A DNA stretch of 64,000 nt from an uncultured Planctomycetaceae bacterium. GTDB taxonomy: Bacteria > Planctomycetota > Planctomycetia > Planctomycetales > Planctomycetaceae. Both the position numbers and the translations under genes were made by a program. Position 1 is the stretch's first letter, and the number at the start of each line of letters is the position of its first letter. Below are positions 43,565 to 58,939 of this stretch, in pieces. The notes beneath the pieces are model-generated. The model was not told where the DNA came from. It ran no database searches and worked only from the letters and a program-made list of their open reading frames with translations. The DNA lies in assembly GCA_963813715.1 (NCBI GenBank), contig CAWFAK010000005.1, positions 1,344,001 to 1,408,000 on the forward strand. Reading direction: 5' to 3'.

Positions 43565-44695
43565 ATGCGGATCCACCAGATTTTGCTTGGAGCCAGCACG
43601 GCTGCGGCCTCCCTTCTGTTTTCGCCCCGCGGAGCCGGATGCTGCTCGGCGGGAAGCGCGGCGGACACGCCGACACGGCAAGTCGCCTCGGTCGATCGAG
43701 CCGTCCTTCGCGACGCCATCAGCGAGGCGACCCTGCGGCTCAACAGTCCGCGGTTTGCCGAACGCGAAGCGGCCTCGAGAGAGTTGATCGACACCGGGGC
43801 GCCGGCCGTGGCAGCCCTGCGGGAAGTGGCTCTGCAAGGCAGCCTGGAAGCGTCGGTCCGTGCTGTCAGCATTCTGGAAGCGATCTACGTTGCCTCGGGC
43901 GACTTCGAGGAAGCCGCCACGGAGGACTTCTGGTCCGAGTTCAATGATGTGCTTCGCGCTTACATCTGGGTCGATCTGAGCGAAGCGCAGACCACGGCCG
44001 ACGCGGCCGAATCCGCGCTGGACGAACTGGAGCGCATCGGCCGCCCCGCCGTTGCCGAACGCGCCGAGATGGCGTTGGAATCGCACTACGATATCCGCGA
44101 GCGCCGCGCTCTCTGCGAAATCGAGCGACTGCACGGGAAGGCTATTTTTGGCGGCCTGCCCGCGACCGTCTTTTGGAACCCGCGGATCAATCCGGCCCCC
44201 CTGCCGAACGAGTTGCAGCGCGAAGCGAACAAGGGCCGCGGCGAATTGACGATGGTGATCATTGGGCCAAAATGGACCGGAGGCGACGAAGGGCTCAAGC
44301 AGGTCGCCCGTCTCAAGAAACTTCATAGCCTGTACCGCATCGAAGGCCAGCAGGTGACTGACGACGGCGTTCTGCGGTTGCGTGCCGCGCTCCCGGGGCT
44401 CGAGATCCAGGTCCGTGCCGCCGCCAAGCTGGGCATCGAGCACCGTCCCGACGTGATCGGTTTCGGCGTCGAACAGGGCTGCAAGATCGAAGCGGTCAAG
44501 CCGGGCGAAGCGGCGGCCAACGCCGGCCTGCGGACGAGCGATGTGATCCTCCAGTTCGCCGGACAAACGGTCAACAACTTCGATTCGCTGGTCGAGATCT
44601 TGCGTCACTACAATCCGGGCGACAACGTCGACGCGACGGTTTACCGCGACGGCGAAGTCCGCACGTACCACCTGACGCTGACCGGCTGGGATTAA
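43565..44695 (+). CDS. secreted PDZ-domain protein with HEAT-like N-terminus
   Basis: F.ERE.AS..L N-terminal helices, LRR-like VTDDGV..L, C-terminal PDZ (AANAGL..SDVI..F.G..V). Confidence 0.75.
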   Translation: MRIHQILLGASTAAASLLFSPRGAGCCSAGSAADTPTRQVASVDRAVLRDAISEATLRLNSPRFAEREAASRELIDTGAPAVAALREVALQGSLEASVRAVSILEAIYVASGDFEEAATEDFWSEFNDVLRAYIWVDLSEAQTTADAAESALDELERIGRPAVAERAEMALESHYDIRERRALCEIERLHGKAIFGGLPATVFWNPRINPAPLPNELQREANKGRGELTMVIIGPKWTGGDEGLKQVARLKKLHSLYRIEGQQVTDDGVLRLRAALPGLEIQVRAAAKLGIEHRPDVIGFGVEQGCKIEAVKPGEAAANAGLRTSDVILQFAGQTVNNFDSLVEILRHYNPGDNVDATVYRDGEVRTYHLTLTGWD

Positions 44696-45074
44696 CCCAG
44701 GCGAGGTTCGACTGGCCCGGTTGAATCGGTCCGCCCTAGCCGTGCGACTATTCCGGTGTTGCTTGCCGGGCGTGCTGCCCGTGCTTTCCACCCGAGGCCC
44801 TTGCTGGCCCCACTGCTGCGCCCCTTCGCTTCCGAGGGTTTTGCGCACCTTTGCGGCCTGATTGCTCCCGTCCGCAAGGTCGCTACTGGCGGAAACCGAC
44901 GCCCGTGTTGCCCGTGTTGATTTTCCGCAACTGTTTCGCTTTTTCCGCGCCCTGCGGAATCGTGAGCTACGTTTTTCTTGTCAAAGCGGCCGGAAAGGGC
45001 CGGCGCCGCGCCTCGCGCGCGACTGCGGGGCCCGCAGGCATCGAATCGCATCGAAACAGGGAGTAAGGGATCCG

Positions 45075-46406
45075 ATGGTCAACGCCAAGTTCGTTCCGCC
45101 TCGTCCGGGCCGTCCCACCGCCGAGCAAGGACAGACCGATTTCGACGAGTTGAAGCGGCTGATCCACGGCAAGCTGGTCGACAAACTCGATCTGACCCGC
45201 CTGGGTGATCTCGAAGGCGACACGCTGCGGCGCGAGATCCGTCTCGTCGTCGAGCACTTGTGCGATACCGAAAATCCGCTGCTCAACCGCTCCGAGCGCG
45301 AAAAACTCATCGAGGAAGTGCTCGACGAGACGTTCGGCTTCGGGCCGCTCGAGGCGCTGCTCAAGGAAGACGGCGTCGCCGATATCATGATCAACGGCCC
45401 CAAGAACATCTTCTTGGAAAAGAACGGCCGGATTCAGCGCTCGAAGATCACGTTCCGCGATAACGAACACCTGATGCAGATCCTGGACCGCATCGTGTCC
45501 AAGGTCGGTCGGCGTATCGACGAAACGTCTCCGATGTGCGACGCCCGTCTTCCGGACGGCTCCCGTGTCAATGCGATCATTCCTCCGCTGGCCCTCGACG
45601 GCCCGGCCATCACCATCCGGCGCTTCGGCGCCAATCCGCTCACGCTCGAGGACCTGTTGCGGTTCGGTGCCTTTACGCCCGAGATGGTCATGCTCCTGGA
45701 AGGAGCGATGAAGGCCCGGCTCAACATGATCGTGAGCGGAGGTACCGGTTCCGGTAAAACGACGCTGCTCAACACGCTGTCGAGCTTCATCCAGGCCGAC
45801 CACCGAGTCATCACGATCGAGGACGCGGCCGAACTTCAGCTCCAGCAGGAACACGTCCTGCGTCTCGAAACGCGGCCGGCCAACATCGAAGGCAAGGGCC
45901 GCATCAACGCGACCGACCTCGTGCGTAACGCCCTGCGTATGCGGCCCGACCGGATCATCATCGGCGAGTGCCGTGGTCCGGAAGCGCTCGACATGCTTCA
46001 GGCCATGAACACCGGCCACGAAGGTTCGCTGACCACGATTCACGCCAACGCCCCGCGCGACGCCGTCTCCCGTCTGGAGACGATGATCAACATGGGCGGC
46101 ATCGATATTCCGCTGAAAGCCCTGCGGCACCAGTTCGCCTCGGCCGTCGACCTGATCGTGCAAGCCAACCGTTTGCAGGGGGGCCCGCGAAAGGTCACCC
46201 ACATCACGGAAGTGCTCAACATGGAGCAGGACACCGTGATCATGCAGGACATCTTCCTGTTCGTGCAGGACGGCATCGACGAGCAGGGACGCGCGTTTGG
46301 GCACTTCACTTCGACCGGCGTGCGTCCGGCGTTTATGTCTCGCCTCGAATCGGCCGGCGTCCGGTTGCCCGCCAACCTGTTCGCCGCCCGTCAACTGGGC
46401 CGCTAG
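45075..46406 (+). CDS. cpaF: Tad pilus assembly ATPase CpaF/TadA
   Basis: [42 protein letters not shown] and [14 protein letters not shown] motifs. Confidence 0.95.
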
Positions 46407-46485
46407 TCACACGAAGAGATCTGCCAGTCCATTTCGAGCAATTTGAGTACGCCGCGGGCCGCCGCCAGCCGCTGGGAACGCTGTC

Positions 46486-47451
46486 ATGAGTCCAATGATT
46501 ATTTCGCTTGCCGCGTTCTTCGCCGCCACGATGCTCATCGTCGGCGTCGCCGCCTTGATGGGCATGTTCAACACGTCCAAGGCGGAAGACCGCCTGGCGG
46601 TGATGACCGGCCGCAAGAAGGAGCTGGAGTCCGAGGGCATCGTCAAGGAAGAACTGTTCCGCGAGGGAAGAGCGGGCGTCGCCGGCATGCTGAGCGGCCT
46701 GGGCAAACGGCTTGAAGGGATGAGCCGCCTCTTCCAACAGGCGGACTGTCCCCTGAAGCCGGAAGTGTTCTTCGGAGTCATGGGACTCTGCGGGTGCCTG
46801 GGCTTTGCCGCCATGGCCATTACGCACGCCGCGCTGCCGTTGCTACCCGCCGGGGCCCTGATGGGTGCCTCGTTGCCGTTAGTCTGGCTGTTGTGGCGGC
46901 GGAAGCGGCGGTTTAAGAAATTTGGCAAGCAGCTGCCGGACGCCCTCGAACTGATCGCGCGAGCCTTGCGGTCGGGCCACAGTCTGGCCTCCGGCTTGCA
47001 CGTCGTCGTGGAAGAAATGCCGGCTCCCATTTCGACGGAGTTCGGCCAGGCATACGAGGAACAGAACCTGGGCGTGCCGCTCGAGCAGTCGCTCAAGAAC
47101 ATCCTCGTCCGCATGCCCAACATGGACCTCAAGTTCTTCGTCACCGCGGTGGCCATTCAAAAGCAGGCCGGCGGCGACATGGCCGAAATCCTCGACAAGA
47201 TCGGCTACATCATCCGCGAACGCTTCAAAATCATGGGCCAGGTGCAAGCTCTCACGGGCGAAGGCCGAATCAGCGGCGTCGTGCTGATGGCCTTGCCGAT
47301 CGCCCTCTTCTTCGCCGTCTACTACCTCAATCCGACCTACATCATGCTCCTGTTCACCGAGGAACTGGGCCGCAAGATGATCGCCGTCGCGGTGGTCTTG
47401 CAGATTCTCGGCGCGATCACGATCAAGAAAATCGTCAACATCAAGATCTGA
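46486..47451 (+). CDS. tadB: Tad pilus platform protein TadB
   Basis: QLPDALELIARALRSGHS, Q...GG..AE.L and ALTGEGR.S motifs, directly after cpaF. Confidence 0.92.
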   Translation: MSPMIISLAAFFAATMLIVGVAALMGMFNTSKAEDRLAVMTGRKKELESEGIVKEELFREGRAGVAGMLSGLGKRLEGMSRLFQQADCPLKPEVFFGVMGLCGCLGFAAMAITHAALPLLPAGALMGASLPLVWLLWRRKRRFKKFGKQLPDALELIARALRSGHSLASGLHVVVEEMPAPISTEFGQAYEEQNLGVPLEQSLKNILVRMPNMDLKFFVTAVAIQKQAGGDMAEILDKIGYIIRERFKIMGQVQALTGEGRISGVVLMALPIALFFAVYYLNPTYIMLLFTEELGRKMIAVAVVLQILGAITIKKIVNIKI

Positions 47452-47497
47452 CGACGGTATCAAGATTCTCACGGCATGGCCGCAGGATGGATCTGTC

Positions 47498-48436
47498 ATG
47501 GACTTAACGAACCTTTTGCCTTGGGCCATTTTCGGCGTCATCACGTTCGGCGTGTGGGCGCTGATCAACGTCTTCTCGTCGCGATCCAGCCGGGCGATCG
47601 AGCGGCTCGAAGAGCTGCGCGATCCGACGCTGCGAAACCGCGAAGGCGGCGGTTCCGGCAAAACCGGCATGGGCGCCGTCGTTGAAATGGCCGCCCCCGC
47701 CCTGTCGAAAGCTCTGCAACCCAAGACCGAGCTCGAGCAAAGCGAACTCAAAAAGCGGATGGCCAACGCCGGCTACAACGCCCCCGGCGCTGCCCAGCTC
47801 TTCCTGGCGATCAAGTTCGCCATGATGATCGGCGGCTGCTTGCTGGGAAGCGGCTTCGGCCTCGTGCACTGGGGGATGACGCAGAAGGGCTGGACCTCGA
47901 TCATCGTCGGGGCCGGCATCGGCTTCTATCTGCCTGAACTGGTGCTCGCTTTGATGAAGCGGTCGCGGCAGGAGAAAATCTTCCTGCAGCTGCCGGATAC
48001 CCTGGACCTCTTGGTCGTCTGCGTGGAAGCCGGCTTGGGTCTCGACGCGGGCATGCGTCGCGTTTGCGACGAGCTGGTCGATTCGGCCCCGGAGCTCACG
48101 TCCGAATTCAACATGGCCAACAAGCAACTGCAAATGGGACGTCCCCGCCGCGAGGTCTTGCATGACCTGGGCGTGCGGACGGGCGTCGACGACATGCGGG
48201 CCCTGGCCGCCATTTTGATTCAGGCCGACAAGTTCGGCTCCTCGATCGCCCAGGCCCTCCGCGTCCAGTCCGACAGCATGCGAGTCAAACGCCGCCAGAT
48301 CGCCGAAGAGCGAGCCCAGCAAACGGCCGTGAAGATGATCTTCCCGCTGGTGCTCTTCATCTTCCCGGGCATCTTCGTGGTGCTGGTCGGCCCGGCCGCC
48401 ATCTCCATGATCAACGGCCTGCTCAAGAACGGCTGA
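47498..48436 (+). CDS. tadC: Tad pilus platform protein TadC
   Basis: LPDTLDLLVVCVEAGLGLD, QADKFG.SI..ALR and KMIFPLVLFIFP motifs. Confidence 0.92.
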   Translation: MDLTNLLPWAIFGVITFGVWALINVFSSRSSRAIERLEELRDPTLRNREGGGSGKTGMGAVVEMAAPALSKALQPKTELEQSELKKRMANAGYNAPGAAQLFLAIKFAMMIGGCLLGSGFGLVHWGMTQKGWTSIIVGAGIGFYLPELVLALMKRSRQEKIFLQLPDTLDLLVVCVEAGLGLDAGMRRVCDELVDSAPELTSEFNMANKQLQMGRPRREVLHDLGVRTGVDDMRALAAILIQADKFGSSIAQALRVQSDSMRVKRRQIAEERAQQTAVKMIFPLVLFIFPGIFVVLVGPAAISMINGLLKNG

Positions 48437-48459
48437 CGCCCGCCACAACTCTCCAAACG

Positions 48460-48490
48460 AAAAACACTGGCCCCGGCCAGTGTTTTTTTT
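48460..48490. terminator. intrinsic, probably bidirectional terminator after tadC
   Basis: AAAAACACTGGCC-CC-GGCCAGTGTTTTTTTT inverted repeat with a T run. Confidence 0.85.
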
Positions 48491-48549
48491 GATCCCGTCC
48501 CGACCGCCTATTGCGTGCGCGGCTCCTTGATTCTGACGAACTCACTCTT

Positions 48550-48614
48550 CCCCCCTCGCCCCTTGCGGGAGAGGGGTCGGCCTGCGACGAGCTCAGTCGA
48601 GCCGGGGTGAGGGG
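48550..48614. repeat. REP-like palindromic element (CCCTCGCCCCTTGCGGGAGAGGG...GGGGTGAGGGG type)
   Basis: Hairpin CCCCTCGCCC-CTTGC-GGGAGAGGGG, a GAGCTCAGTCGA insert, then GGGGTGAGGGG. Confidence 0.65.
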
Positions 48615-48674
48615 CCCCTTTTCGATCCCGTCCCAATCGACGCGTCCCGTCCGGTTCGCGTCCCGTCCCGTGTC

Positions 48675-48754
48675 CACCACGAAGGCACAAAGGACCAAGG
48701 AATTCGAATCTGCTGACTTAGGATCTTGCTTCGTGCCTTCGTGTCTTTGTGGTG
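48675..48754. repeat. palindromic repeat CACCACGAAGGCACAAAG...CTTCGTGTCTTTGTGGTG
   Basis: Imperfect 18-bp inverted repeat arms around a spacer of about 45 bp. Confidence 0.7.
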
Positions 48755-49047
48755 AAAATCTCCGTGAGCTTGTCATCCCGCCTCACAGATTGTGACCGGA
48801 CCGGACCGGACCCGATCCCGTCGCGTCTCTCTCTATCTCTGACCTTGGACCTTGGACTTACTCGAGTCCCGTCCCGTCTAGCAGAGCAGTCCGGACCCGG
48901 ACCCCTGCTCGCGAAAGTGTCCGGACCGGACCTTTTGACCGGTCCCGTCCCCAGTTGGCGTGTCCCGACCGAGAGGTCGCGGATCAAATTCGCCGGGATT
49001 CGCTCGGTAAAACAACGTGTCCCGGGCTTTGCACAATGGAACGCATT

Positions 49048-50331
49048 TTAGCCGATCTGTTGTGCAATTCTCAGATTCGTTGTGCAGACCGGGGCGGCGG
49101 CGAAATCGGGCTGAATCCCAAGCTCGTGCATCGCTCCGATCAGCACGCAAAGGTTGTGACAGAGGATTTTGCAGAGCACTTCGTTCTTCATCGCCAGCTT
49201 GGTCCGGCTGCGAACGGCGTCCCCGAACTTGGTTTTGATCGACATGAAACAGGCTTCGATGTTAGACCGCTTGTGGTAATGCCGCAGGAACTCCTCCCGG
49301 TGCAGGCTGAAGTAGTGGAACGCCTTGGCGTAGAGCCCGCCGACCGCCCCGGTCGTGCCGGCCCGGAACGGGATGTACGCGGTCGCCTTGTGTTTCGCAA
49401 TCGCTTCAAAATTGGCCGTACTGGCGTACTGTCGGTCTGCTGAAACTTCCGACACGTCGAAGTTCTTCGCGGTCTCGTCCAAGAGCGCGGGCAAGAGCGG
49501 ACTGTCGTTCGTGCAGCGCTCGTGAATCTCGACGGCGGTCACGACGTGGTCGTGCAGCCGATCATCACGTGGGTTTTTACCCAGTCGGTTTCCTTCCGCT
49601 CGCCACCGCACGGGCCGTACTTGTGGTCGTACCAGCGATGGAATCGGCTGGCCGTGAATCCCGTTGAATCTGCGGCGAAATCGCTCTCAATCGCGGTAAG
49701 CGGCAGGCTGGCTTTGACGATCAACTCGCGCAAGAACGTCCGTCATGCGTTCATCGTCAAGGCGATTGAAGATCGAGTTGAAGTGCGGGACGCAGCCGAT
49801 GTGCCCCTTGGCGTGGCATCCGCAGGTCCGACATGAACCGCCGGCCGCTCAGCGTGGAGAACACCTTGAAGCAGACCGCGAACACGGCGTCACGCATCGG
49901 GATGCGGCGCTGTCCGCGCCCTCTTGCGATTCCTCTTCGATCCCTTCACACAACGCAGCCAAGAGCGATTGGAACGTATCCTTCTCGCTGGTCTGGGCGC
50001 GGTTGTACGCGGGCCACTGCTGCGGATAGCTCTTGCGGACGATCTTCTCTTCGACGGTCACGCTTTCCGTGATCGTCTCGCTTCCGTCCGCGAACAATTC
50101 CCTTTGTCGCACGATCCGAACGGCCAAGATGTGTTTGCAGGTACAGCCGCGTAACTCGAAATCGGGGCAAGTGCAGTGAGGCGACTGGTCGTCAGGATCG
50201 ACCTTGTACCGCTTCTCACCCGGCAACGATTGAGACGAGACGTACCATTGGTTCCCGATCTGCACGATCTTCTGCGTTGCCGCCAAGATCAGTGCGCGAT
50301 TCTCGCGATCCAGCAACTTCCAATCGGTCAT
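49048..50331 (-). pseudogene. SWIM-zinc-finger DDE transposase with at least 4 frameshifts (real decay or assembly error)
   Basis: N-terminal CTCPDF...CKH (SWIM), FAADSTGF, WVK.H, NDSP, SADRQY and YHKRSNIE..F..IK.KFG, K.L.HN. Frame breaks near 49922, 49815, 49735 and 49550. Confidence 0.85.
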
Positions 50332-50414
50332 GGCCGCTTCCCCTACAGGATGCGGCGCGACGGGTTAAAATGTCCGACAAGGGGCATTCGGGCCGTTCAC
50401 GCCTGAGTGCTTCG

Positions 50415-50448
50415 GCCCGTCGTAGCTCGAACTACGGCGGGCTTTTTT
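50415..50448 (+). terminator. intrinsic terminator antisense to the transposase leader
   Basis: GCCCGTCGTAG-CTCGAA-CTACGGCGGGC followed by TTTTTT. Confidence 0.75.
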
Positions 50449-50477
50449 GTTCCCGGTTCTAAAATGAACCAGTCGGT

Positions 50478-50506
50478 TTGACACCGTTACTATCCGTCAC
50501 TATACT
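50478..50506 (+). promoter_or_regulatory. sigma70 promoter for the cargo ATPase
   Basis: TTGACA (50478-50483), 17-nt spacer, TATACT (50501-50506). Confidence 0.8.
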
Positions 50507-50527
50507 ACACTATCCGATGCTAGTCAA
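50499..50527 (-). promoter_or_regulatory. sigma70 promoter for the transposase
   Basis: Minus strand TTGACT (50527-50522), 17-nt spacer, TATAGT (50504-50499). Confidence 0.75.
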
Positions 50528-50553
50528 CTCTAATTGCTCTGGAGGGCGAGGGC

Positions 50554-51807
50554 ATGCCTCTTTCCAAATCCGACTTGCAAACCAAGGCGCTTCAGCTCGG
50601 GCAGATTTTCAAACCGGCATCGCCAATCGATCAGGAGGATCTGTTTTGCGGGCGGCAAACCCAGATCCGCAACGTCGTAGACGCGATCAACCAGACCGGT
50701 CAGCACGTAATCATGTACGGCGAGCGGGGCGTGGGGAAAACTTCGCTGGCCAACGTGCTGGTATCGAAGCTTCGCGCTGGCAACCGCGTGATCGTGGCTC
50801 CGCACGTCAACTGCGACAACGGCGATGACTATGCCTCGATTTGGAGAAAGGTGTTCTCGGAAATCACTGTTATCTCGGAGAAGCGGTCGCCGGGATTTGT
50901 GGCCAAGATCGAGAAAACGGTGGGCTGTCTAGCGGATCAAATCAAGGGGCACATCACCCCGGATTCCGTCAGGAAGCTCCTAACGAGTGTCGGCGAGAAC
51001 TCCATGCTTCTCGTAATTCTCGACGAGTTCGACAAAATTCCGAAAAAAAATGTTCGCAGTCTGGTCGCAGACACCATTAAGGTGCTGTCGGACCGCGCTA
51101 CTCCGTCAACGATTGTCGTAGTCGGGTTTGCTGACGACGTTAACGGACTGATCGAAGAACACCAATCGATTGAACGGTGCCTAGTCCAGGTTCCAATGCC
51201 GCGCATGTCTCCAGTGGAACTCGAAATGATTGTAACCAACGGCCTCAAGCGCGTCGGCATGACGATCGACCAGGATGCCCTTCAGGAAATCTCGGGACTC
51301 TCTAAAGGGCTGCCTCACTACACCCATCTAATCAGCCTGCATTGCGCAAGGCGAGCGCTCGATTCCGGAACGCTGGCGATCACACCCGACCATGTAAAGG
51401 CCGCGGTTCGCGAGGCGATCACGGAGACGCAGCAGACCATTAAAAGCACGTATAACGAAGCAACTCTGAGCACGAAGAAAAATGCCCTATATCGGCAAGT
51501 GCTTCTTGCCTGCGCGATGACTGACGCGGACGACTTTGGCTACTTCGCTCCGATCGACGTGCGTGAACCGCTTAGTCGGGTGTTGAAAAAACCCTCAAAG
51601 ATTGAGGCGTTCGCAAAACACCTGCATGCGTTTTGCGAGGACAAACGCGGACCCGTGCTAAAAAAGATGCCGGATCGATCCAGGTTCCGTTTCATGAACC
51701 CACTCATGCAGCCTTTCATTCTGATGAAGGGGCTAAAGGACGATCTTGTGACCGAAGACGATTTGGGCCTGAAGCGTGATCCAAAGGCGGAAGGCAAATT
51801 GTTTTAG
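50554..51807 (+). CDS. Cdc6/ORC- or STAND-like AAA+ ATPase (transposon cargo)
   Basis: LFCGR, Walker A GERGVGKTS, Walker B LVILDEFD, IER arginine finger, SKGLPHY (GxP) and a winged-helix-like tail (RFRFMNPLM). Intact frame with SD-like GAGGG. Confidence 0.85.
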   Translation: MPLSKSDLQTKALQLGQIFKPASPIDQEDLFCGRQTQIRNVVDAINQTGQHVIMYGERGVGKTSLANVLVSKLRAGNRVIVAPHVNCDNGDDYASIWRKVFSEITVISEKRSPGFVAKIEKTVGCLADQIKGHITPDSVRKLLTSVGENSMLLVILDEFDKIPKKNVRSLVADTIKVLSDRATPSTIVVVGFADDVNGLIEEHQSIERCLVQVPMPRMSPVELEMIVTNGLKRVGMTIDQDALQEISGLSKGLPHYTHLISLHCARRALDSGTLAITPDHVKAAVREAITETQQTIKSTYNEATLSTKKNALYRQVLLACAMTDADDFGYFAPIDVREPLSRVLKKPSKIEAFAKHLHAFCEDKRGPVLKKMPDRSRFRFMNPLMQPFILMKGLKDDLVTEDDLGLKRDPKAEGKLF

Positions 51808-51838
51808 CCGCCCGGAAGCGGCAAGGGAGCATGCGGGC

Positions 51839-52291
51839 ATGATCGAAAAGCAGCTTTTGACGGCGGTCATCGTCCCCGTCGGGATTTTGGTCGTCACCGT
51901 CGTCTGCAAGTGCCTCATCCGAATGAGTTGGCCCAGGCTGACGGATTTTTACATGGGAATCGACGCGATGATGGCCGCCATCGCGTCGGGACTGATTTAC
52001 TTGTGCGATCTGGGCTATCAATATCGCGACGCAAAAAAAACCGTCGACCCAAAGGACAGGGCCGACCAGCTGGATCTCATTGCAAAGCACGCCTTCTACG
52101 GGATCGGATACTGTGTTGCCGTTGCGGTTTTTCTGTTCTTTTTGTTGCTTTTTCACCAGCGTTACGAAGCCCTAAAATTGCAGGGGAAAACGCCTAAATT
52201 CTGGAGTTGGATGAATTTTCTTATCTTGGTGATCTGCAATGGGATAGGCTTTGGTTGGCTGTTCGCAATCGTGTACTTTATCACCGGCTGA
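51839..52291 (+). CDS. hypothetical 4-TM membrane protein (transposon cargo)
   Basis: Four hydrophobic segments, AT-richer codons, GGGAG upstream, 31 bp after the ATPase. Confidence 0.7.
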   Translation: MIEKQLLTAVIVPVGILVVTVVCKCLIRMSWPRLTDFYMGIDAMMAAIASGLIYLCDLGYQYRDAKKTVDPKDRADQLDLIAKHAFYGIGYCVAVAVFLFFLLLFHQRYEALKLQGKTPKFWSWMNFLILVICNGIGFGWLFAIVYFITG

Positions 52292-52360
52292 GCTTGACAG
52301 TCCGATATAATGATTGCCGAGTCATTCCCATTCAGTCCGCCAACTCGCGGGCATTTCCTT

Positions 52361-52585
52361 ATGACCCAAAACGCAGAATCCACCAAGACGCGAACCGCGG
52401 AAGTGATCGCATGTACCGCTGCCGCGAGCGGCGTTGCGCTCGGAATTGCGTCGGCAGTTACCGTTTCGATTCCACTGGTTGCCGCCGCCGCTGGCCTCGG
52501 TCTTATTGGCGTCGCCGGCGAGTACTACGCTCAGCGCACGCCTGCAGGCACAGCGGTCCAGTCGGAGGGCAAGCCGCGCTCTTGA
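52361..52585 (+). CDS. small Ala/Gly-rich hydrophobic protein (transposon cargo)
   Basis: 74 aa with two glycine-zipper-like hydrophobic stretches, followed by a terminator. Confidence 0.5.
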   Translation: MTQNAESTKTRTAEVIACTAAASGVALGIASAVTVSIPLVAAAAGLGLIGVAGEYYAQRTPAGTAVQSEGKPRS

Positions 52586-52607
52586 GTCGCGGAAGATCGA
52601 TGCATGA

Positions 52608-52634
52608 CCGCTCCGCTAGGGGCGGTTTTTTTTT
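52608..52634 (+). terminator. intrinsic terminator closing the cargo operon
   Basis: ACCGCTCC-GCTA-GGGGCGGT followed by a T run. Confidence 0.75.
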
Positions 52635-52672
52635 GCGCCGCCCACGTCCCCCTCTCCCGGTACAATCGCGGC

Positions 52673-52940
52673 ATGAGCCGTAAACGCCGCTTGGTCCGAG
52701 TTGCGGTTTGCGCAGCCGTGCTGATCGCCTACGTGGGCGGATACTTCGTCTGGCCTCACGGTGAATTAGCTACCTTCGGGGATTTCTATCGCAGCTTCCC
52801 CTTGGAAGGACTCAACCGGCTCTACGTTCCGCTGGGCTGGCTAGAGTGCAAGATACGGGGGCGCACGGTAACCCTAAGCGGTCCGACCCCAGGTCACGGC
52901 ATCCAGTTCGATCCGGGCACTCTGGTAATTCGCGCTCGTT
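52673..52940 (+). pseudogene. membrane-anchored gene fragment at the right end of the transposon
   Basis: MSRKRRLVRVAVCAAVLIAYVGGYF...LYVPLGWLE. No stop before the TIR, so the frame reads through into flanking DNA. Confidence 0.5.
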
Positions 52941-53469
52941 CCGTTGTGCAGCCGGGCGTTCTGTTGTGCAGAACCGTCCCGTTGTGCAAAGCCACGTGTC
53001 CCGTCCCGTTCTTGTCCTCTCCCGGGGCGCCGCGACCCTTCCCCTCGGTGTTTCCCCCTAGCTGCTGGTGGGGATCTTTTTCTCCCTTATGTGAAAACGG
53101 ATCCCCACCCCCAGCAGGGACAGTTTTTGATCACCCGCGAGGATTCTCCCGTCACCGCGCCGCCGCGATCGCGCAGGTGTCCGGACCGGACTTCGGGAAC
53201 CACCCAGCCCCAGAACCGGATGCCGAACTTGGTCTCACTGGGTGTCCAGGGGGCCTGCGCGGTGAACTGGGGCTCCGCGCCGTCTCGGCGCGGCACCTAA
53301 ACCGCTCGCGCGATCCCGCTCTTTCCATTCAGCCACAAAACCGCGATCCGTCCAAGATCAGTTTTCGCGGAATTCAGGATCGGCTACGCCACAGCTCGGC
53401 GCGGAGCGTTTGACTTTTGTCTCCTCGGTTCCCGCGTCCCCATGCACTGCCGATAGTCCCGAAGGCTTC

Positions 53470-54120
53470 TTACTTTGACGCATTCTTCGCCACGATTCGA
53501 TGCGCGACGCACGCGACGTCGTCGCATCGGTCAATCGCCCGCTCGACAAGCTCGTAAAGCTCCTTCCACTTGATCACATCGAAGGCGTCGAGGCGGCCGT
53601 CGAACAGCTGCGTCAGAACCCGATGATGGATGGCGTCGCCCTCTTCCTCGGCGTGATGCGTCACGATCACCAACTGGTCGACGGACATGGCGAGTTTCGC
53701 GGACTTACGGTCCTCGATGTGCCGGATACACATGACGGCATCGGAAGCAAGGCGGCTGGCTTTCACGAGAACGGCGCACTGCCGCACGAATTCGTCCTCA
53801 CTTCTCGCGACTTTGTAAAAGATCATTCGTCGACCGACGGCGTCGATGTCATCGACCACGTCGTCGATTCGCGAAACCAGGTCGTAGACGTCTCCGCGAT
53901 CAGCAGGCGAAAAGTTGCTCCGGGCGAGTCGAGCGAATGTTTCCCGCGCGAGTTCGTCGCCGTCGTGTTCAGCTTGGATGATGGCGGTGACCAGCTCACT
54001 GGTGATGAGGTCTGCGGAGCACGCTAAGTCCGCAAGCAGCTCGGCTGAGCGCACGGCGTTTTGCGCCGCACGCTCGAAGGCATCGCAATAGTCGAGGTAG
54101 TTAGGCAGCAAGCGAAACAT
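53470..54120 (-). CDS. DUF47 (PhoU-like) phosphate transport regulator
   Basis: EHDGD, DRGD...L...DDVVD, EEEGD and IKWKELYE.VE.A.DRCDDVA motifs. Confidence 0.88.
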   Translation of the reverse strand: MFRLLPNYLDYCDAFERAAQNAVRSAELLADLACSADLITSELVTAIIQAEHDGDELARETFARLARSNFSPADRGDVYDLVSRIDDVVDDIDAVGRRMIFYKVARSEDEFVRQCAVLVKASRLASDAVMCIRHIEDRKSAKLAMSVDQLVIVTHHAEEEGDAIHHRVLTQLFDGRLDAFDVIKWKELYELVERAIDRCDDVACVAHRIVAKNASK

Positions 54121-54145
54121 GCGTTGCCTCGAAACTGGGCGTCAC

Positions 54146-57100
54146 TCAACCAGGGATTGGCGGCCGCGCCTCCTCCAACTTGTTCGGCACCACAAGCGAG
54201 TAGACGCACGGCACCACGAACAGCGTCGTCACCAGACCCGCGATCAGGCCGCCGAGGACCGCGCGGCCCAAGGGGACGTTCGCTTCGCTGCCGCGGCTCA
54301 GACCCAGCGACATCGGGATCAGGGCGAAGAACGTCGCCAGCGCCGTCATGACCACCGGCCGCACCCGGACCGAGGCGGCGCCGTCGATCGCCTCGAGCGG
54401 AGTCACCCGGTCCGCCTGCCGCACGTTCTCGGCGAAGTCGATCAGCAGCACCGTGTTCGACACCACGATGCCCACCATGAAGATGACGCCCAGCAGCGAC
54501 TGGACGTTCAAGGCCGTTCCGGTGAAGAACAGCATCAAGATGACGCCGACCACGCCGACCGGCACGGCCGACAGCACCACCAGCGGCGTCAGGTACGACC
54601 GGAACAGGGCGACCATCAGGAAGTAGATCAGCAGAACCGCCCCGACCATGCCCATCGCCTGGAATCGGAACGTCTGCTGCATCTTCTGATACTCGCCGGC
54701 CAGGACGATCCGGGCCCCTTCCATCGGCTTCTGTCCGGGCGCGTCGGGATCGAAGGGCGTCCAGCCGCCGTCGGGCCGCTCCTTGCCGAACTTCGCCACG
54801 ACCCGGCTCACGTCCTCGGCCACGTGCCCGAGGTCGCGGCCGTGCACCCCCATCGTCAGATCCATCGTCGCCTGAAGGTTGGTGTGGTTGATCTCGGCCG
54901 GCACTTCGACTCGCGGCAGTGGACTTCACGATGTTCCGCAGCGGGATCGGCTTCTGCTGCCCGGGCCGGTGATCGGGATGTCGAGCAGGGTATCGACGCG
55001 AGGTGATGTCTTCTTCGGGGTACTGCACGCCGACGAAGTACTGGTTGGAGCTCTTCGGGTCGATCCAGAAGTTCTTCTTGTTGAACTGAACGCTGGAGTT
55101 GAACGCCGACACGACGTTCTGCATCATGTCCGCCTGAGTCGAGCCCGAGGTCGGACGCCTTGGCCTGGTCGATTTCCAGGACGTACTGCGGGTAGTCGAG
55201 GCGCTGGATGATGCGGGCGTCCACGACGCCGTCGATCCGCTTCACTTCCTTCAGAATTCGCTCGGCCACCTTGCGGGCCTTGTTCATGTCCTTGCCCGTG
55301 ATGCGGACGTTGATCGGAGTGGACTTGCCCTCGTTCATGGCCGACCGGACCATGCCGCCGGCGTCGAAGGCGAATTCCAGGTCGGAGAACTGCGGATCGG
55401 CCGCGAATCCCTGCCGCAAGCATGTCGACGTACTCCTGGGCCGACTGCGACCGCTCGGTCTTGAGTTGAACCTTCACGACCGCGTCCATCGGCCCGGCGT
55501 TCGGCGTGAAGGCGGCCGACCAGTTCGGCGTCAGCCCGATCTCGCTGATGACCAGTTCCAGGTCGTCGCCAGTCTTCTCCTTCACGAATTTCTCCGACGC
55601 GGCGATCTTCTCCTCGGTCTCTTCGATCCGCGTGCCGGACGGGGCCCGGACGAAGATCTCGAACGCGCCGGCATCGACTTCCGGGAAGAACTCCCGGCGC
55701 AGGTCTGGGCCGAAGCACAACGACGACCACGGCCAGGGCCGCGAACGCCGCCGCCGATCACGAAGCCGCGAGCTCGCAGGCCACGTCGAGGAGCCGGAGT
55801 ATAACGCGCGATCCCGGCGATCGACGCGACTTCCCATTTCTCGAACAGCCGGCCGAGCCAGCCCTTTGCGGGGCGTTCTCGTGTTCGTTGCGGTGCTCGT
55901 AGTCGAAGGTGTGGGACTCGACCGGCTTGTGCCCGTGCGACTTCAGCCAGGCCGCACAGCGGGCCGGGACGAACGTCCGCGACAGGACGTAGGCGATCGC
56001 CATGGCGAACGCCACGGCCAGGAACATCGGCCGGAACAGGAACGCCCCGAGCCCGGGCATCAGCGCCAGCGGCAGCAGCACGAGCAGCGTGCAGAGCTGG
56101 CGATCAGTTCGGGCATGGCCACCTCGCTGGCCCCGAGGAAGGCGGCCTCCTTCGGCTTCGCCCCGAGGCCGAGGTGGCGGTGCGTGTTCTCCAGGCAAAT
56201 GATCGCGCTATCCACCAGCGGGCCGATCGCCAGGGCCAGCCCGGCCAGAGTCATCACGTTGATCGTCTGCCCGAAGCCGTACAGGCAGGCGATCGGCCCC
56301 GAGCACGGCAACCGGGATCGTCATCACGGCGATCAGCGTCATCCGCCATTCGCCGAGGAAGACCAGGATCACCAGCGAGCAGAGGATGGCGCCGAGGATG
56401 CCTTCTTCGGCGAGGCTTTCGATCGCCTTGCGGACGTAGACCGACTGGTCCATCACCAGTTTCAGATCGACGTCCGGGGTGGTCAGCCGGTCCTTCATGT
56501 CGGGCAGGTTCTGTCTTGAGAGTGTCGACGACGCTCAGCGTGCTGTACCCCGACTGCCGGTAGACCGGGATGTAGACCTGCCGGCGGCCGTCCACGCGGA
56601 CGACGTTCGTTTGAATCGGGGCGGCGTCCTTCGGGTCGGCCACCTCTTTCAGGAAGATCGTCCGCCCGTCCGCGTCGGTCTTGATCGGGAATGTCGCCCA
56701 TGCGCTCGACGCGCGTCGTACATCGCGTTGGAGTCGAGCGTGTAGTCGAACTTGCCGAACTTCGCGTCGCCGGCCGGGATGAAGATGTTGAACCGGTCCA
56801 GGGCATTCATCACATCGATCGGGGACAGGCCGTGGGCCTGGAGCTCGGTCGCGGTCGAGGTAGGCCAGGATGGTGCGAATCTTCCCGCCGTAGACGACCG
56901 GGGCGTTCGCCCCGCGCGACGCCATGATCATCATCCGGACCTGGTAGCGGGCGGTGTCGTAGAGGACCGATTCGTTCTGCGTCTTGCTGTTGAGGGCGAC
57001 CAGGCAGACCGGCGTGGACGAGGTCGGGTCGTAGGGCAGGATGACCGGCGGCAGCGTTCCCGGGGGCAGGGTCGGGATTTCGACGGTGGCCAGCGAGTTG

Positions 57101-57428
57101 ACCTGGGTCAGGGCGCCGGCCGGATCGACGTCGTCGGCGTAGAAGTTGCGGACGATGCTGACGCCGAGGAGCGACCGCGATTCCTGGCGGATCGATCCCG
57201 GCGGCCTGCCCGGTGCCGCGTTCCATCCGGGCGGTGATGCCGGCCTCGACGCTGGTCGCGGCCATGCCGTTGTAGAAGGTCAGCACCTGGACGGCCGGGC
57301 TGCGGTACACCGGCAGGATGTCGGCCGGGATCACCGCCAGGGCCACGGCCCCGGCCAAGCACGATCGTCAGCATCAGGACAGTGATCGCCCGGGGATTGC
57401 CGAGCGAAAAGCGGATCAGACCATTCAT
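54146..57428 (-). CDS. RND efflux permease (AcrB family), many frameshifts
   Basis: Fragments MNGLIRFSL, LAGLALAIGPLVDSAIICLEN, FFPEVDAG.F, SLLGVIFMVGIVVSN and RVRPVVMTALAT..ALIPM across about 8 ORF pieces. Confidence 0.85.
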
Positions 57429-57431
57429 GGA

Positions 57432-58939
57432 TCAAGGCCGGTCTCGCGGTCGAGACAACCCGGGCGTGGGATCAGGGCGTCGGCAGGACTTCGGAGTGGA
57501 ATGTCGAGGTGGGACGAGCAGGGCGTGCCGCGGCTTTCGCTTGGCTACTTTGGCTATCAACGATACCACGGCGGTTCCCTCTCCAGTGGGCCGCTGGCCC
57601 GGACGATGACGCGGTCCGTCGGCCGTCAGCCCCGAGAGGACTTCGACCTCCGACCCGTTGTCGGCCCCGTAGCGACCGGCGACAAGCGGCTTTGTCGTCA
57701 CGGACCACGCGAACCGATCCCTTCCCGCCTCCGCCTTTCCGACCAACGCGGACCGACGGAATGCGGAACGCATCCGGCGACCGGCTTGCAGGATGAGGGT
57801 GACTCGGCCGAACATCCCCCGGCGGAGCTTGCCGTCCGGGTTCTTGACATGCACCTCGGTTCGCATCATGCGAGTGTGCGGATCTTCGGACGCGGCCAGC
57901 CGGGACACTTCCACCTTGTCGGCCCCGCGGGTCTTGAAGACCACCCCGGGCAGGGCGTCCACCTCGACGACGGCGGGATCGCCGCAGTCGACAAACGGAA
58001 CGTCGCGTTCCGGCACCTGGATAACGACCCGCATGACGTCCGTCCGCTCGACGGCCAGCACCGGCATCCGGTCCCCGCCGGCGTCGGCTGACCGAATGAA
58101 GTCGCCGGGATGGAAATTCCGCTTGGTGACGACGCCGGTATACGGGGAACGGATGACCGTGTAATCGAGCAGGACCTGCGACTTCTCGAGCCGGGCCTTG
58201 GCCGTTGCGACTTCGGCCTCGGCGTACCGGAGATCGGCCTGGGCCTGCGTGCACTCGGGCACGGGCCGCCGCTTCCTTTTGCCTGGCCGCATTTACCGCT
58301 TCGCCGGCCGCGAGTTCGGCCGAGACGGCTGCCTGGTACTGATCCTCTTGCTCGTCCGCAAGCTTGGCTTCGATCGCCTTGCGCGCGACCAAGTCCTGAT
58401 TCGATCCCGCTGCTTCTCGCGGTACGCCCGGTACGATCTTTGCTCTTCTTTTCGGCCTGGCCAGAGCGATCACCGCAGTGGCCGCACCAAGGTCGGCCTC
58501 GGCGGTGGTGATCGCGGCTTTCATTTGCTCCACCTTGGCCTCCGCCCGCACGACGTCGGCCGCGTCCTGCTTCACCTGCTTCTCGTACTCCGGCACCGAA
58601 ATCCGGGCCAGCACATCCCCCGCTCGCACGGGATAGCCGATATCGACATTCTGTTCGACCAGGAAACCCGAAACTTTGCCGTACAGGTCGGCCGGCTCAA
58701 ACGGCTCGACTGATACCCGGCTGGAGGCACAGCCGATCGATGCCGCCGGAACGAGGCGCGACGACCCTAACTGAGACTGCACCCGCGCTCGCAGCAGCCT
58801 TTGAGCTGTCGAGTATCAGGGGTGCAGAATTCTCCGCAGCGGCCCTGCCATGAACGAAGACGTACCCCGTGCCTGCGGCGCCTGCCGCCAGGACCACGAG
58901 ACCGAGAAATAGATTGGACCTTGAGACAAAACGAGGCAT
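57432..58939 (-). CDS. RND periplasmic adaptor (MFP), several frameshifts; 3' end approximate
   Basis: N-terminal TM, KVSGF...VDIG..V.AG.VLA, coiled coil, IRSPYTGVVTKRN and NPDGKLRRGM motifs. Confidence 0.82.

Follow-up and report, generated by a model that had tools for sequence, protein, structure and literature searches.

A probable cargo-bearing transposon copy with a SWIM-finger DDE transposase in an intergenic repeat of an uncultured planctomycete

The DNA examined here, called the window throughout, is a stretch of 64 kb (64,000 nucleotides) from contig CAWFAK010000005.1 of an uncultured Planctomycetaceae bacterium (assembly GCA_963813715.1, positions 1,344,001 to 1,408,000), and its positions 49025-52993 are occupied by a 3969-bp element lying between two terminal inverted repeats (TIRs) and flanked by a 10-bp target-site duplication (TSD). 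A single transposase gene occupies the left part on the minus strand, and the remainder, 50332-52974, consists of a plus-strand operon and one further open reading frame (ORF; Table 1). Repeat and pattern searches found one long-range inverted pair, whose arms (49025-49043 and 52975-52993; 19 nt) are complementary at 17 of 19 positions (89%). A degenerate TIR pattern matched three times, against 0.00 expected in 100 shuffles, the third match (52957-52975) being a subterminal repeat. The 10-mer ACGTGTCCCG occurs exactly twice in the window, each copy abutting a TIR; by itself this is only mildly unusual (shuffle mean 0.34, with two or more copies in 6 of 100 shuffles). The ten identical bases, seen both here and at a second copy of the element on contig C17 of the same genome, also fit a duplication of 9 bp plus one extra terminal G. 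An earlier note, made from the letters of this DNA, had proposed 19-bp TIRs at 49025 and 52993, an exact 10-bp TSD on both sides and divergent passenger genes beyond the transposase, all of which these results bear out.

Table 1. Features of the element and its insertion site (window positions).
Feature	Position	Strand	Basis
3' part of abundant host intergenic repeat, insertion target	48981-49024, resumes 52994-53007	+	recurrent matches ending exactly at 49024
Left TSD, ACGTGTCCCG	49015-49024	.	exact 10-mer; single copy in empty-site contig
TIR beside transposase stop codon	49025-49043	+	inverted pair; GGCTTTG terminus common to 48 delimited relatives (pairing anchored on that 7-mer)
Two inverted subterminal copies of terminal core TTGTGCA[A/G] (about +34, +54)	49053-49067, 49073-49087	+	repeat family D1
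Transposase gene, SWIM finger and DDE core, frameshifted	49048-50331	-	ORF pieces, Pfam, NCBIfam, indel map
Terminator-like hairpin in transposase-cargo spacer	50414-50443	+	12-pair stem and T run; consensus match only
Promoter-like TTGACA-17-TATACT toward cargo	50478-50506	+	consensus match only; function inferred
Promoter-like TTGACT-17-TATAGT toward transposase	within 50478-50527	-	consensus match only; function inferred
Three tandem 10-bp direct repeats, ACTATCCGTC, ACTATACTAC, ACTATCCGAT	50489-50528	.	repeat family D2; overlap the divergent promoter-like sites
Passenger 1, 417-aa P-loop NTPase, STAND/Cdc6-like	50554-51807	+	Pfam nSTAND1 52.9 bits (cutoff 27.1), AAA_22, AAA_16
Passenger 2, 150-aa hydrophobic protein	51839-52291	+	ORF
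Passenger 3, small hydrophobic protein, 91 aa from first ATG	52310-52585	+	ORF; Pfam sub-threshold only
Terminator-like hairpin and T run closing the three-gene operon	52606-52627	+	consensus match
24-nt cassette: TACAAT, ATG 6 nt later	52652-52675	+	8 genome copies, at most 3 mismatches
Passenger 4, ORF from cassette ATG	52673-52993	+	no stop inside element; reads past right end to 53413 (frame of ORF 52604-53413)
Two direct subterminal copies of terminal core (+23, +43)	52937-52951, 52957-52971	-	repeat family D1
TIR, cargo-side end	52975-52993	-	inverted pair and degenerate pattern match
Right TSD, ACGTGTCCCG	52994-53003	.	exact 10-mer, abuts cargo-side TIR

Logan contigs of four public metagenome runs, among them X1 and X2 of one study, were aligned to 48600-53400, the uncovered parts of that interval being no evidence of absence. 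One contig of 510 nt (run X1, record 1) follows the window from 48600 to 49014 with 2 other letters and then continues from 52994 for 89 letters, skipping 3979 letters at a joint where 10 letters fit both sides and ACGTGTCCCG is present once. The left flank of this empty allele is 99.5% identical to the window (2 other letters in 415). Record 3 of the same run carries a filled left junction (48994-49154, 2 other letters), and since the C17 paralogue differs from the window at no fewer than 10 positions over this interval, the contig is taken to be the window's allele. Three contigs of run X2 are identical (0 other letters) to cargo segments. The empty site, which the earlier note had proposed to look for in reads, and the filled junction together mean that the 3969 bp were gained or lost as a unit and that both alleles coexist. 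Positions 49025-52993 are a foreign, polymorphic insertion in a natural soil population and not core genome. Other joints in the contig layout, with sides of 20-44 letters in repeats, were set aside as paralogous repeat copies. When 46400-55200 was searched in 30 relatives, the flanking genes were conserved and the intergenic repeat field was not; in the closest relative the two flanks of the element lie about 340 kb apart, and the orthologous site cannot be read as filled or empty. The cargo DNA was not found in the 30 relatives searched, apart from a 71%-identical stretch in one of them (G007) that corresponds to 52657-52937, in the last ORF.

The transposase has a large number of relatives. 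Of 8000 proteins scored in a homology search, 5735 lay at E<=1e-3, almost all of them 400-430 aa long; an exhaustive phmmer run against 1.84 billion cluster representatives yielded 888 clusters at E<=1e-30, and at least 582 relatives were counted in species-representative genomes. For the analysis of ends we kept 80 of these loci, assigned to phyla by record title: 40 Planctomycetota, 21 Acidobacteriota (among which we count 'Candidatus Angelobacter', presumably a member of that phylum), 12 Alphaproteobacteria, 4 Verrucomicrobiota, 1 Nitrospirales and 2 unclassified. An independent first look found [T/G]GCAAAGCC, with at most one mismatch, downstream of the gene in 34 of the 80. A script then paired each upstream GGCTTTG with each downstream CAAAGCC and accepted pairs whose TIRs agree at 14 or more of 24 positions and whose TSD is 8 bp or longer; an end pair was present in 61 loci, and 48 passed both thresholds. 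The delimited elements measure 1539-6514 bp, 47 of them at least 2667 bp, and the sole bare insertion sequence (IS) among them is L089, of 1539 bp. On the transposase-5' side, none of the 47 larger elements has less than 877 bp, and in 30 of them a further 303-2878 bp follows the stop codon. The genus of the window contributes two additional elements, one of 5677 bp with a 9-bp TSD and one of 4008 bp with a 10-bp TSD; five other stretches retrieved with them duplicated elements already in the count.

In three genomes, cargo-bearing copies that are all but identical occupy different sites and have different TSDs: L054/L055 (4681/4682 positions identical), the three copies L091/L092/L110 (2697/2697) and L077/L127 (3171/3173). 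Since the cargo is shared while sites and TSDs differ, the whole unit transposes, cargo included. Passengers that lie inside the inverted repeats and move along with them, as in a transporter IS, are thus seen both at the empty site and in the multi-copy elements. Among the homologues that the earlier note had proposed to collect, 48 of the 80 loci share the ends and have TSDs of 8-10 bp, and 47 of these 48 delimited elements carry variable cargo; the ten identical bases at the window copy fit 10 bp or 9 bp plus a terminal G, and the norm of the family is 9 bp (9 bp in 42 elements, 10 bp in 5, 8 bp in 1). Seven of the 48 TSDs have the form CC.....GG (e.g. CCCTTGGGG, CCCGCGGGG; elements L064, L065, L069, L070, L077, L090 and L127), against about 0.4 expected, so that some members of the family may prefer palindromic targets.

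The two ends of these elements are built differently. Taking nucleotides 6-13 of each end as the core, we scored its recurrence within 90 nt in the 48 relatives and the two copies of this genome (n=50). The end on the transposase-5' side has direct core copies at +23/+43 in 34 of the 50 (both copies in 22), and the end beyond the stop codon has inverted core copies at +35/+55 in 35 of the 50; shuffled controls gave means of 0.02-0.04. The ends of the window element match this architecture exactly; with the terminal copy, each end carries three 8-nt cores spaced by about 20 bp. In L069 and L071 the gene is flipped relative to the ends. The SWIM domain may read the subterminal core repeats. A second subfamily of ends, GGCTTTGCACAAAAAC... 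with +23/+43 direct repeats, was seen elsewhere in this genome (G000 C8:666445, C9:18024, C9:19145, C16:110694); no matching transposase gene was found for it in this genome, and the C9 pair, 1.1 kb apart, has no duplication. These ends may belong to non-autonomous or decayed relatives.

The window transposase is spread over three minus-strand ORF pieces (49849-50331, 49539-49733 and 49048-49611), of which the first matches Pfam SWIM (28.2 bits, cutoff 19.6) and the last DDE_Tnp_1 (51 bits), as expected from the single transposase with an N-terminal SWIM finger (CxC...CxH) and a DDE core that the earlier note had described. That note had also suggested looking for other copies, and the C17 copy (L050, G000 C17:678431-682180, 3750 bp) proved to be 87% identical over the transposase side, with an open 428-aa gene whose product has SWIM at residues 42-71 and DDE_Tnp_1 at residues 218-395. 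Compared with this intact paralogue, the window gene has uncompensated frameshifting indels near 49918, 49820/49815, 49733 and 49551-49556, and the read-through match contains 2 TGA codons. Apart from a short fragment, the window and C17 copies are the only ones of this transposase in the genome. The C17 copy has damage in each of the three core repeats at its cargo-side end and the window transposase is broken; hence no fully competent copy is seen in this 82.6%-complete assembly. We read the window transposase as a pseudogene, an assembly error being less likely. With its gene frameshifted, the window copy, which lacks an intact transposase of its own, would move only with transposase supplied in trans, and the word 'complete' in the earlier note does not hold in the functional sense. 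The cargo of the C17 copy is wholly unlike that of the window: it comprises a 68-aa ORF behind a perfect palindrome and overlapping out-of-frame ORFs that look like a broken gene, with no Pfam or PADLOC family found.

That the element is autonomous, its frameshifts being consensus errors of the assembly, is the most durable of the competing explanations, although we consider it unlikely. Metagenome contigs from three runs are intact at three of the window's frameshift sites, with an extra base after 49918 (X1), an extra base after 49547 (X1, X4, X8) and, at 49731, one base less (X4); two of the three fall within short C or G runs, and the ends and TSD are intact and the insertion polymorphic. 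However, those contigs also differ elsewhere (e.g. 15 other letters in 340), which points to related copies at other loci, and the neighbouring genes and the 417-aa cargo gene are open, as they would not be in a generally indel-ridden assembly. The 1.3 kb of the gene contain four or more indel sites without compensation, some of them in a substituted, non-homopolymer context, and this pattern resembles decay.

The element interrupts an abundant intergenic repeat of the host in its 3' part. Uninterrupted, the site is the 19-mer AACAACGTGTCCCGTCCCG, which the genome contains 47 times exactly and 101 times with at most 2 mismatches, arranged in clustered intergenic arrays in which 41 of 87 neighbour distances are below 1 kb. 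The conserved core of the repeat, about 45 nt long (...TTC.CCGGG.TTTTCTCGGTGAAACAACGTGTCCCGTCCCG), ends just past the insertion point, which reads ...AACAACGTGTCCCG|TCCCG.... The junctions of the window and C17 copies and of a solo right end lacking a transposase (C4:50564-50618) all adjoin one and the same 10-mer of the repeat. Because three independent sets of junctions share one position of a repeat that makes up about 2 kb of a 7.5-Mb genome, chance cannot account for insertion at this fixed position. In other genomes the relatives show diverse TSDs, and homing to the repeat therefore belongs to the local subfamily. Rfam over 44000-58000 returned nothing for the host repeat, for which a REP-like (repetitive extragenic palindromic) sequence, the end of a miniature inverted-repeat transposable element and a regulatory element are candidates. 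Other repeat units fill the same spacers (48600-49024 and 52994-53400), namely GTCCCGTCCC, CCGGACCGGACC and a hairpin at 53061-53115.

The fixed position also bears on age. The earlier note had taken the perfect TSD to suggest a recent insertion; the recency is supported by the near-identical empty allele and the filled junction in X1, but the argument from the TSD is weakened, since all copies in this genome insert at one position of a conserved host repeat, where a perfect TSD is a weak marker of age. It could accordingly be argued that the polymorphism is a deletion, in which the two 10-bp repeats recombined and an old immobile relic was lost. Short direct repeats are known to allow such precise excision, the transposase has decayed, and the perfection of a TSD within a host repeat of about 100 conserved copies says little. 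Against this, the empty flanks are 99.5% identical and both alleles occur in one sample, so that the polymorphism is young either way, and recombination between 10-bp repeats 4 kb apart is rare. We regard a deletion as still less probable than an error of assembly, and it would alter only the dating of the element, not its nature.

The passengers of the window copy start behind the terminator-like hairpin and the back-to-back promoter-like sites listed in Table 1, of which the strong one toward the cargo matches the consensus at 11 of 12 positions and the other at 10 of 12; the tandem 10-bp repeats overlapping them are a possible operator. A sub-threshold Rfam match to anti-hemB in the same spacer (50339-50450, 24.7 versus 49.5 bits) was taken as chance. 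Relatives of the product of passenger 1, a nucleoside triphosphatase (NTPase), number more than 4483; they are about 420 aa long, bear the name 'Cdc6-like AAA superfamily ATPase' and are patchily distributed in the phylum, where 300 other genomes searched at E<=1e-40 gave the protein in 3. Passenger 2, for which no Pfam, NCBIfam or PADLOC family was found, probably encodes an integral membrane protein, judging from its hydrophobic sequence. The GC content drops to 52-56% across 50500-52250, compared with 62-66% on both sides and a genome-wide value of 63.2%, and the three-gene operon is a low-GC, horizontally acquired unit with its own predicted promoter and terminator. Passenger 4, again without a family in Pfam, NCBIfam or PADLOC, starts in a 24-nt cassette each of whose eight genome copies is fused to a different ORF (consensus CGCTCCCGGTACAATCGCGGCATG); the other copies lie at G000 C4:49823, C5:643701, C8:395162, C9:18880, C12:422231, C15:22642 and C16:110096, several of them near transposon-type ends. 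The cassette is probably a portable promoter for leaderless mRNA.

Most likely, although this is unproven, the cargo of the window is a conflict or defence module, a role assigned solely by analogy with the cargo of the relatives and from the STAND class of the NTPase. The Pfam nSTAND1 match, above its cutoff, assigns a fold class and names no defence system, and PADLOC found no match for the three small proteins of the window. One of the NTPase homologues, 33% identical (L144, G166 C304, 75-2988), lies in a small insertion that duplicates the 3' end of a large gene, where a 341-aa ORF (75-1100) and a 69-aa ORF (2779-2988) share near-identical C-terminal peptides.

AAA+ proteins such as IstB, TnsC, TniB and MuB select targets for their transposases, and a P-loop, AAA-like NTPase encoded next to, and divergent from, a transposase gene might likewise be a helper of transposition and no passenger. 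This is highly improbable, for no NTPase homologue was found in the other delimited elements, the window ORFs join no cluster of cargo genes, and the only P-loop protein among 123 cargo ORFs is an AbiL-type AAA_21; moreover, L089 has no extra gene, multi-copy elements without such an NTPase have transposed, and the NTPase family stands alone elsewhere.

Across the family, 24 of the 123 cargo ORFs have a Pfam family (E<=1e-5). These include RloB with AAA_21, DUF1883, a Ser/Thr kinase, a NikA-like protein and Peptidase_M78/ImmA with helix-turn-helix domains (3); C5, N6 (2) and D12 DNA methylases; SocA/Panacea (2), HipA_C, DUF3800 and DUF6932; and SDH-type proteases (3), P63C and three nested IS genes. 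Matches to PADLOC models came from 10 elements and 15 of 117 ORFs; they comprise AbiLi, AbiLii, a PD-T4-6-type kinase with capP/RmrA, RmrA, parts of type II and type IIG restriction-modification systems, PDC-S45, PDC-M63A and PDC-M63B. In an all-against-all clustering no gene was common to more than 5 elements, and since the largest cluster has 5 members, no accessory gene is required.

We put the probability that 49025-52993 is a copy of a unit transposon (a 'transporter IS'), with an IS903-like SWIM transposase, multi-site ends and cargo that moves along, at about 85%. In such an element the transposase would bind the multiple end sites, plausibly via its SWIM domain, and pair the two unlike ends; the whole unit would insert at a 9-10-bp staggered cut. 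Everything between the ends travels along, as the multi-copy elements and the empty site show, and in this genome the subfamily enters the abundant intergenic repeat at its fixed position. That the locus is not one unit, and that an IS of about 1.4 kb lies beside unrelated genes, with an older solo end as right TIR and trapped host DNA as cargo, finds some encouragement in the solo right end at C4:50564-50618 and in the non-exhaustive search for a second, transposase-proximal TIR, but is scarcely credible given an empty-site contig that lacks the whole 3969 bp and one TSD copy in a single step, cargo DNA not found in 30 relatives save for the one 71% match to the last ORF, cargo GC about 8-10 points under that of the genome, near-identical cargo-bearing copies of relatives at different sites with different TSDs, and two ends that show the complementary direct/inverted architecture of the family.

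Several points, besides a possible assembly origin of the frameshifts, weigh against a unit transposon with defence cargo. The empty site is supported by one Logan contig of low depth (3.5), with one contig per allele. No acceptable end pair was obtained for 32 of the 80 loci, 19 of them having no GGCTTTG/CAAAGCC pair (many are cut by contig ends) and 13 failing the TSD or TIR threshold; the figure of 47 cargo-bearing elements in 48 covers delimitable elements only, and the script is blind to relatives with termini other than GGCTTTG. The cargo ORFs, of at least 110 aa, were called mechanically, some being surely spurious, and 99 of the 123 (about 80%) have no Pfam family. For the window cargo, the best PADLOC match is mad8 (E=2e-5, 22 bits), in the P-loop region only, and two of the three NTPase homologues in the 300 genomes (L142 and L144, 33-35% identity) have no small membrane genes adjacent. 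The binding of the SWIM domain to the subterminal repeats is hypothetical, and the AlphaFold model of the intact transposase is mediocre (mean predicted local distance difference test score 71.8). Foldseek of that model against the PDB gave no match at E<=0.001, and weak matches to RNase-H folds (integrase, ISCth4 and Tn5; E ~1e-2) were, like this negative, not used as evidence.

The affiliation of the transposase was sought in its catalytic core. The intact paralogue matches Pfam DDE_Tnp_1 with 70.5 bits (cutoff 23), a catalytic core of the kind found in IS5/IS903 transposases, and among NCBIfam models it scores highest on NF033579 (IS5 family), with 106.6 bits against a cutoff of 140; it falls below every NCBIfam IS-family cutoff, the IS1182, IS4 and ISNCY models scoring far lower. 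In an alignment of 19 relatives C53, C55, C65, H67, D222, D300, E360, Y353, R356 and K367 are invariant, as is the Y-2-R-3-E-6-K spacing (Y353-R356-E360-K367; 19/19). The best tblastn matches in 72,556 plasmids are 22-27% identical, cover only residues ~105-394 and are all annotated as IS5 family (ISAs4, ISRusp1, ISEc35, ISRhba5). ISEc35, ISAs4 and one Alloyangia IS are 1051-1062 bp long and SWIM-less, have GGCGTTGTTG... ends and score 369-384 bits on NF033579, and two of these three (ISEc35 and the Alloyangia IS) have 9-bp duplications. IS903 itself is about 1.06 kb long with GGCTTTGTTG... ends and a 9-bp duplication, features on which the ISs examined were placed in the IS903 group; a plasmid match (H59) proved not to be IS903. 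Because the nearest plasmid ISs have IS903-like features and NF033579 is the best model, the transposase is a distant relative of the IS903 group with about 100 extra N-terminal residues. Some relatives (P0281, P0282, P0287, P0293, P0329 and others) align only from residue ~92-103 and have N-termini of other lengths, in proteins of up to 634 aa, so that other N-terminal domains, too, may have become attached to the IS903-like core in this lineage.

The IS903 group typically comprises elements of about 1 kb with one ORF. The SWIM elements share with it the best model NF033579, GGC.TTG ends, the 9-bp duplication as norm and the Y-2-R-3-E-6-K signature; in contrast, their core is only 22-27% identical, at 106.6 bits against the 140-bit cutoff, and a SWIM region of about 100 residues is added. 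Whereas IS903-type ISs have a single short inverted repeat (IR), about 1.05 kb and one gene, the SWIM elements, despite their GGC ends, have three core repeats per end, a length of 2.7-6.5 kb and passengers. Membership of the IS4 family, described by a YREK motif, a duplication of about 9-12 bp and CA/CT ends (PMC2266710), was rejected: the YREK spacing and the 9-10-bp TSD fit, but the ends are GG and not CA/CT, and NF033592 is subthreshold (40.4 bits, cutoff 115). Of the 'IS4/IS5-like DDE core' of the earlier note, the IS5 part, as IS903-like, is thus upheld and the IS4 part is not.

The relatives are named 'transposase' or 'transposase/predicted nucleic acid-binding Zn finger protein' in their sources, and the Atlas clusters are named 'Transposase DDE/SWIM zinc finger domain-containing protein'. 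Full-text literature searches, which did not cover ISfinder and TnCentral, found no paper on a SWIM plus IS5-type transposase or on defence-carrying ISs, and no lineage with an IS903-like core and SWIM was found described in NCBIfam or Pfam. That the lineage, with its IS903-like core and SWIM finger, triple-site unlike ends and near-universal cargo in five phyla, is undescribed is unproven; scores below the NCBIfam cutoffs, generic names, the lack of a paper in that search and cargo in 47 of 48 elements agree with the 'poorly described transporter-IS family' of the earlier note. We propose, tentatively and at somewhat short of even odds, that the SWIM-DDE elements form a distinct, unnamed family-level group that arose from an IS903-like ancestor, is present in at least five phyla, has asymmetric, multi-site ends of Mu/Tn7 style that a SWIM-bearing transposase reads, and serves mainly as small shuttles of defence, toxin-antitoxin and restriction-modification genes. 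New conflict systems would then be plentiful among the many cargo genes that have no assigned family. The usual view takes small DDE ISs for gene-free parasites and leaves the transport of cargo to Tn3, Tn7, composite transposons and integrative elements. In the present case an IS903-type enzyme of simple build, having acquired a SWIM finger and triple-site ends, drives cargo carriers of 3-6 kb that are common in soil Planctomycetota, Acidobacteriota, Alphaproteobacteria and Verrucomicrobiota. GGCTTTG ends with a 9-bp duplication would be a compact, easily delimited marker with which to search little-studied phyla for accessory and defence genes, and the elements offer both a natural case of the effect of an added zinc finger and multiple end sites on transposase behaviour and an example of an IS homing to a host repeat.

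Among known systems, ISs such as IS1397 target REP sequences and bacterial interspersed mosaic elements (BIMEs). The window subfamily resembles these REP/BIME-targeting ISs in its fixed insertion position within an abundant intergenic repeat and differs from them in its IS family and in a host repeat that is no known REP element. Three binding sites per end, arranged unlike at the two ends, are a feature of larger transposons such as Mu or Tn7, to which the ends of the SWIM elements may be likened, in contrast to the single IR of the IS903-type ISs examined. Tn7-like elements also carry defence cargo. The SWIM elements have in common with Tn3 and Tn7-like unit transposons a single unit, defined multi-site ends and variable accessory genes, whereas they dispense with a Tn3-type transposase, resolvase or TnsABC in favour of a single IS5-type transposase and are much smaller. 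Tn3-family elements are described as carrying toxin-antitoxin pairs (PMC7157771).

A SWIM zinc finger joined to a DDE transposase is also found in the Mutator-like elements (MULEs) of eukaryotes, in which SWIM is C-terminal to an IS256-like core and a WRKY-GCM1 domain is N-terminal (PMC1702500). Here SWIM is N-terminal to an IS5/IS903-like core, and because both its position and the catalytic core differ, the fusion looks independent of that in MULEs. The statement of the earlier note that IS4/IS5 elements carry no passengers was too strong: the transporter IS (tIS) is an established concept (PMC7986276, PMC9330008), and elements of the IS231 subgroup of 1450-5400 bp with extra DNA and passengers were noted in 2008 as unusual (PMC2266710), while for the IS6 family passengers are mentioned in 'a single member' (PMC7986276). 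Like the tIS and the IS231 group, the elements described here combine an IS-type transposase with IRs that enclose genes unrelated to transposition; unlike them, they are of IS903-like and not of IS4/IS231 lineage, they carry passengers in 47 of 48 cases where these are exceptional in the former, and their cargo leans to defence, toxin-antitoxin and restriction-modification genes.

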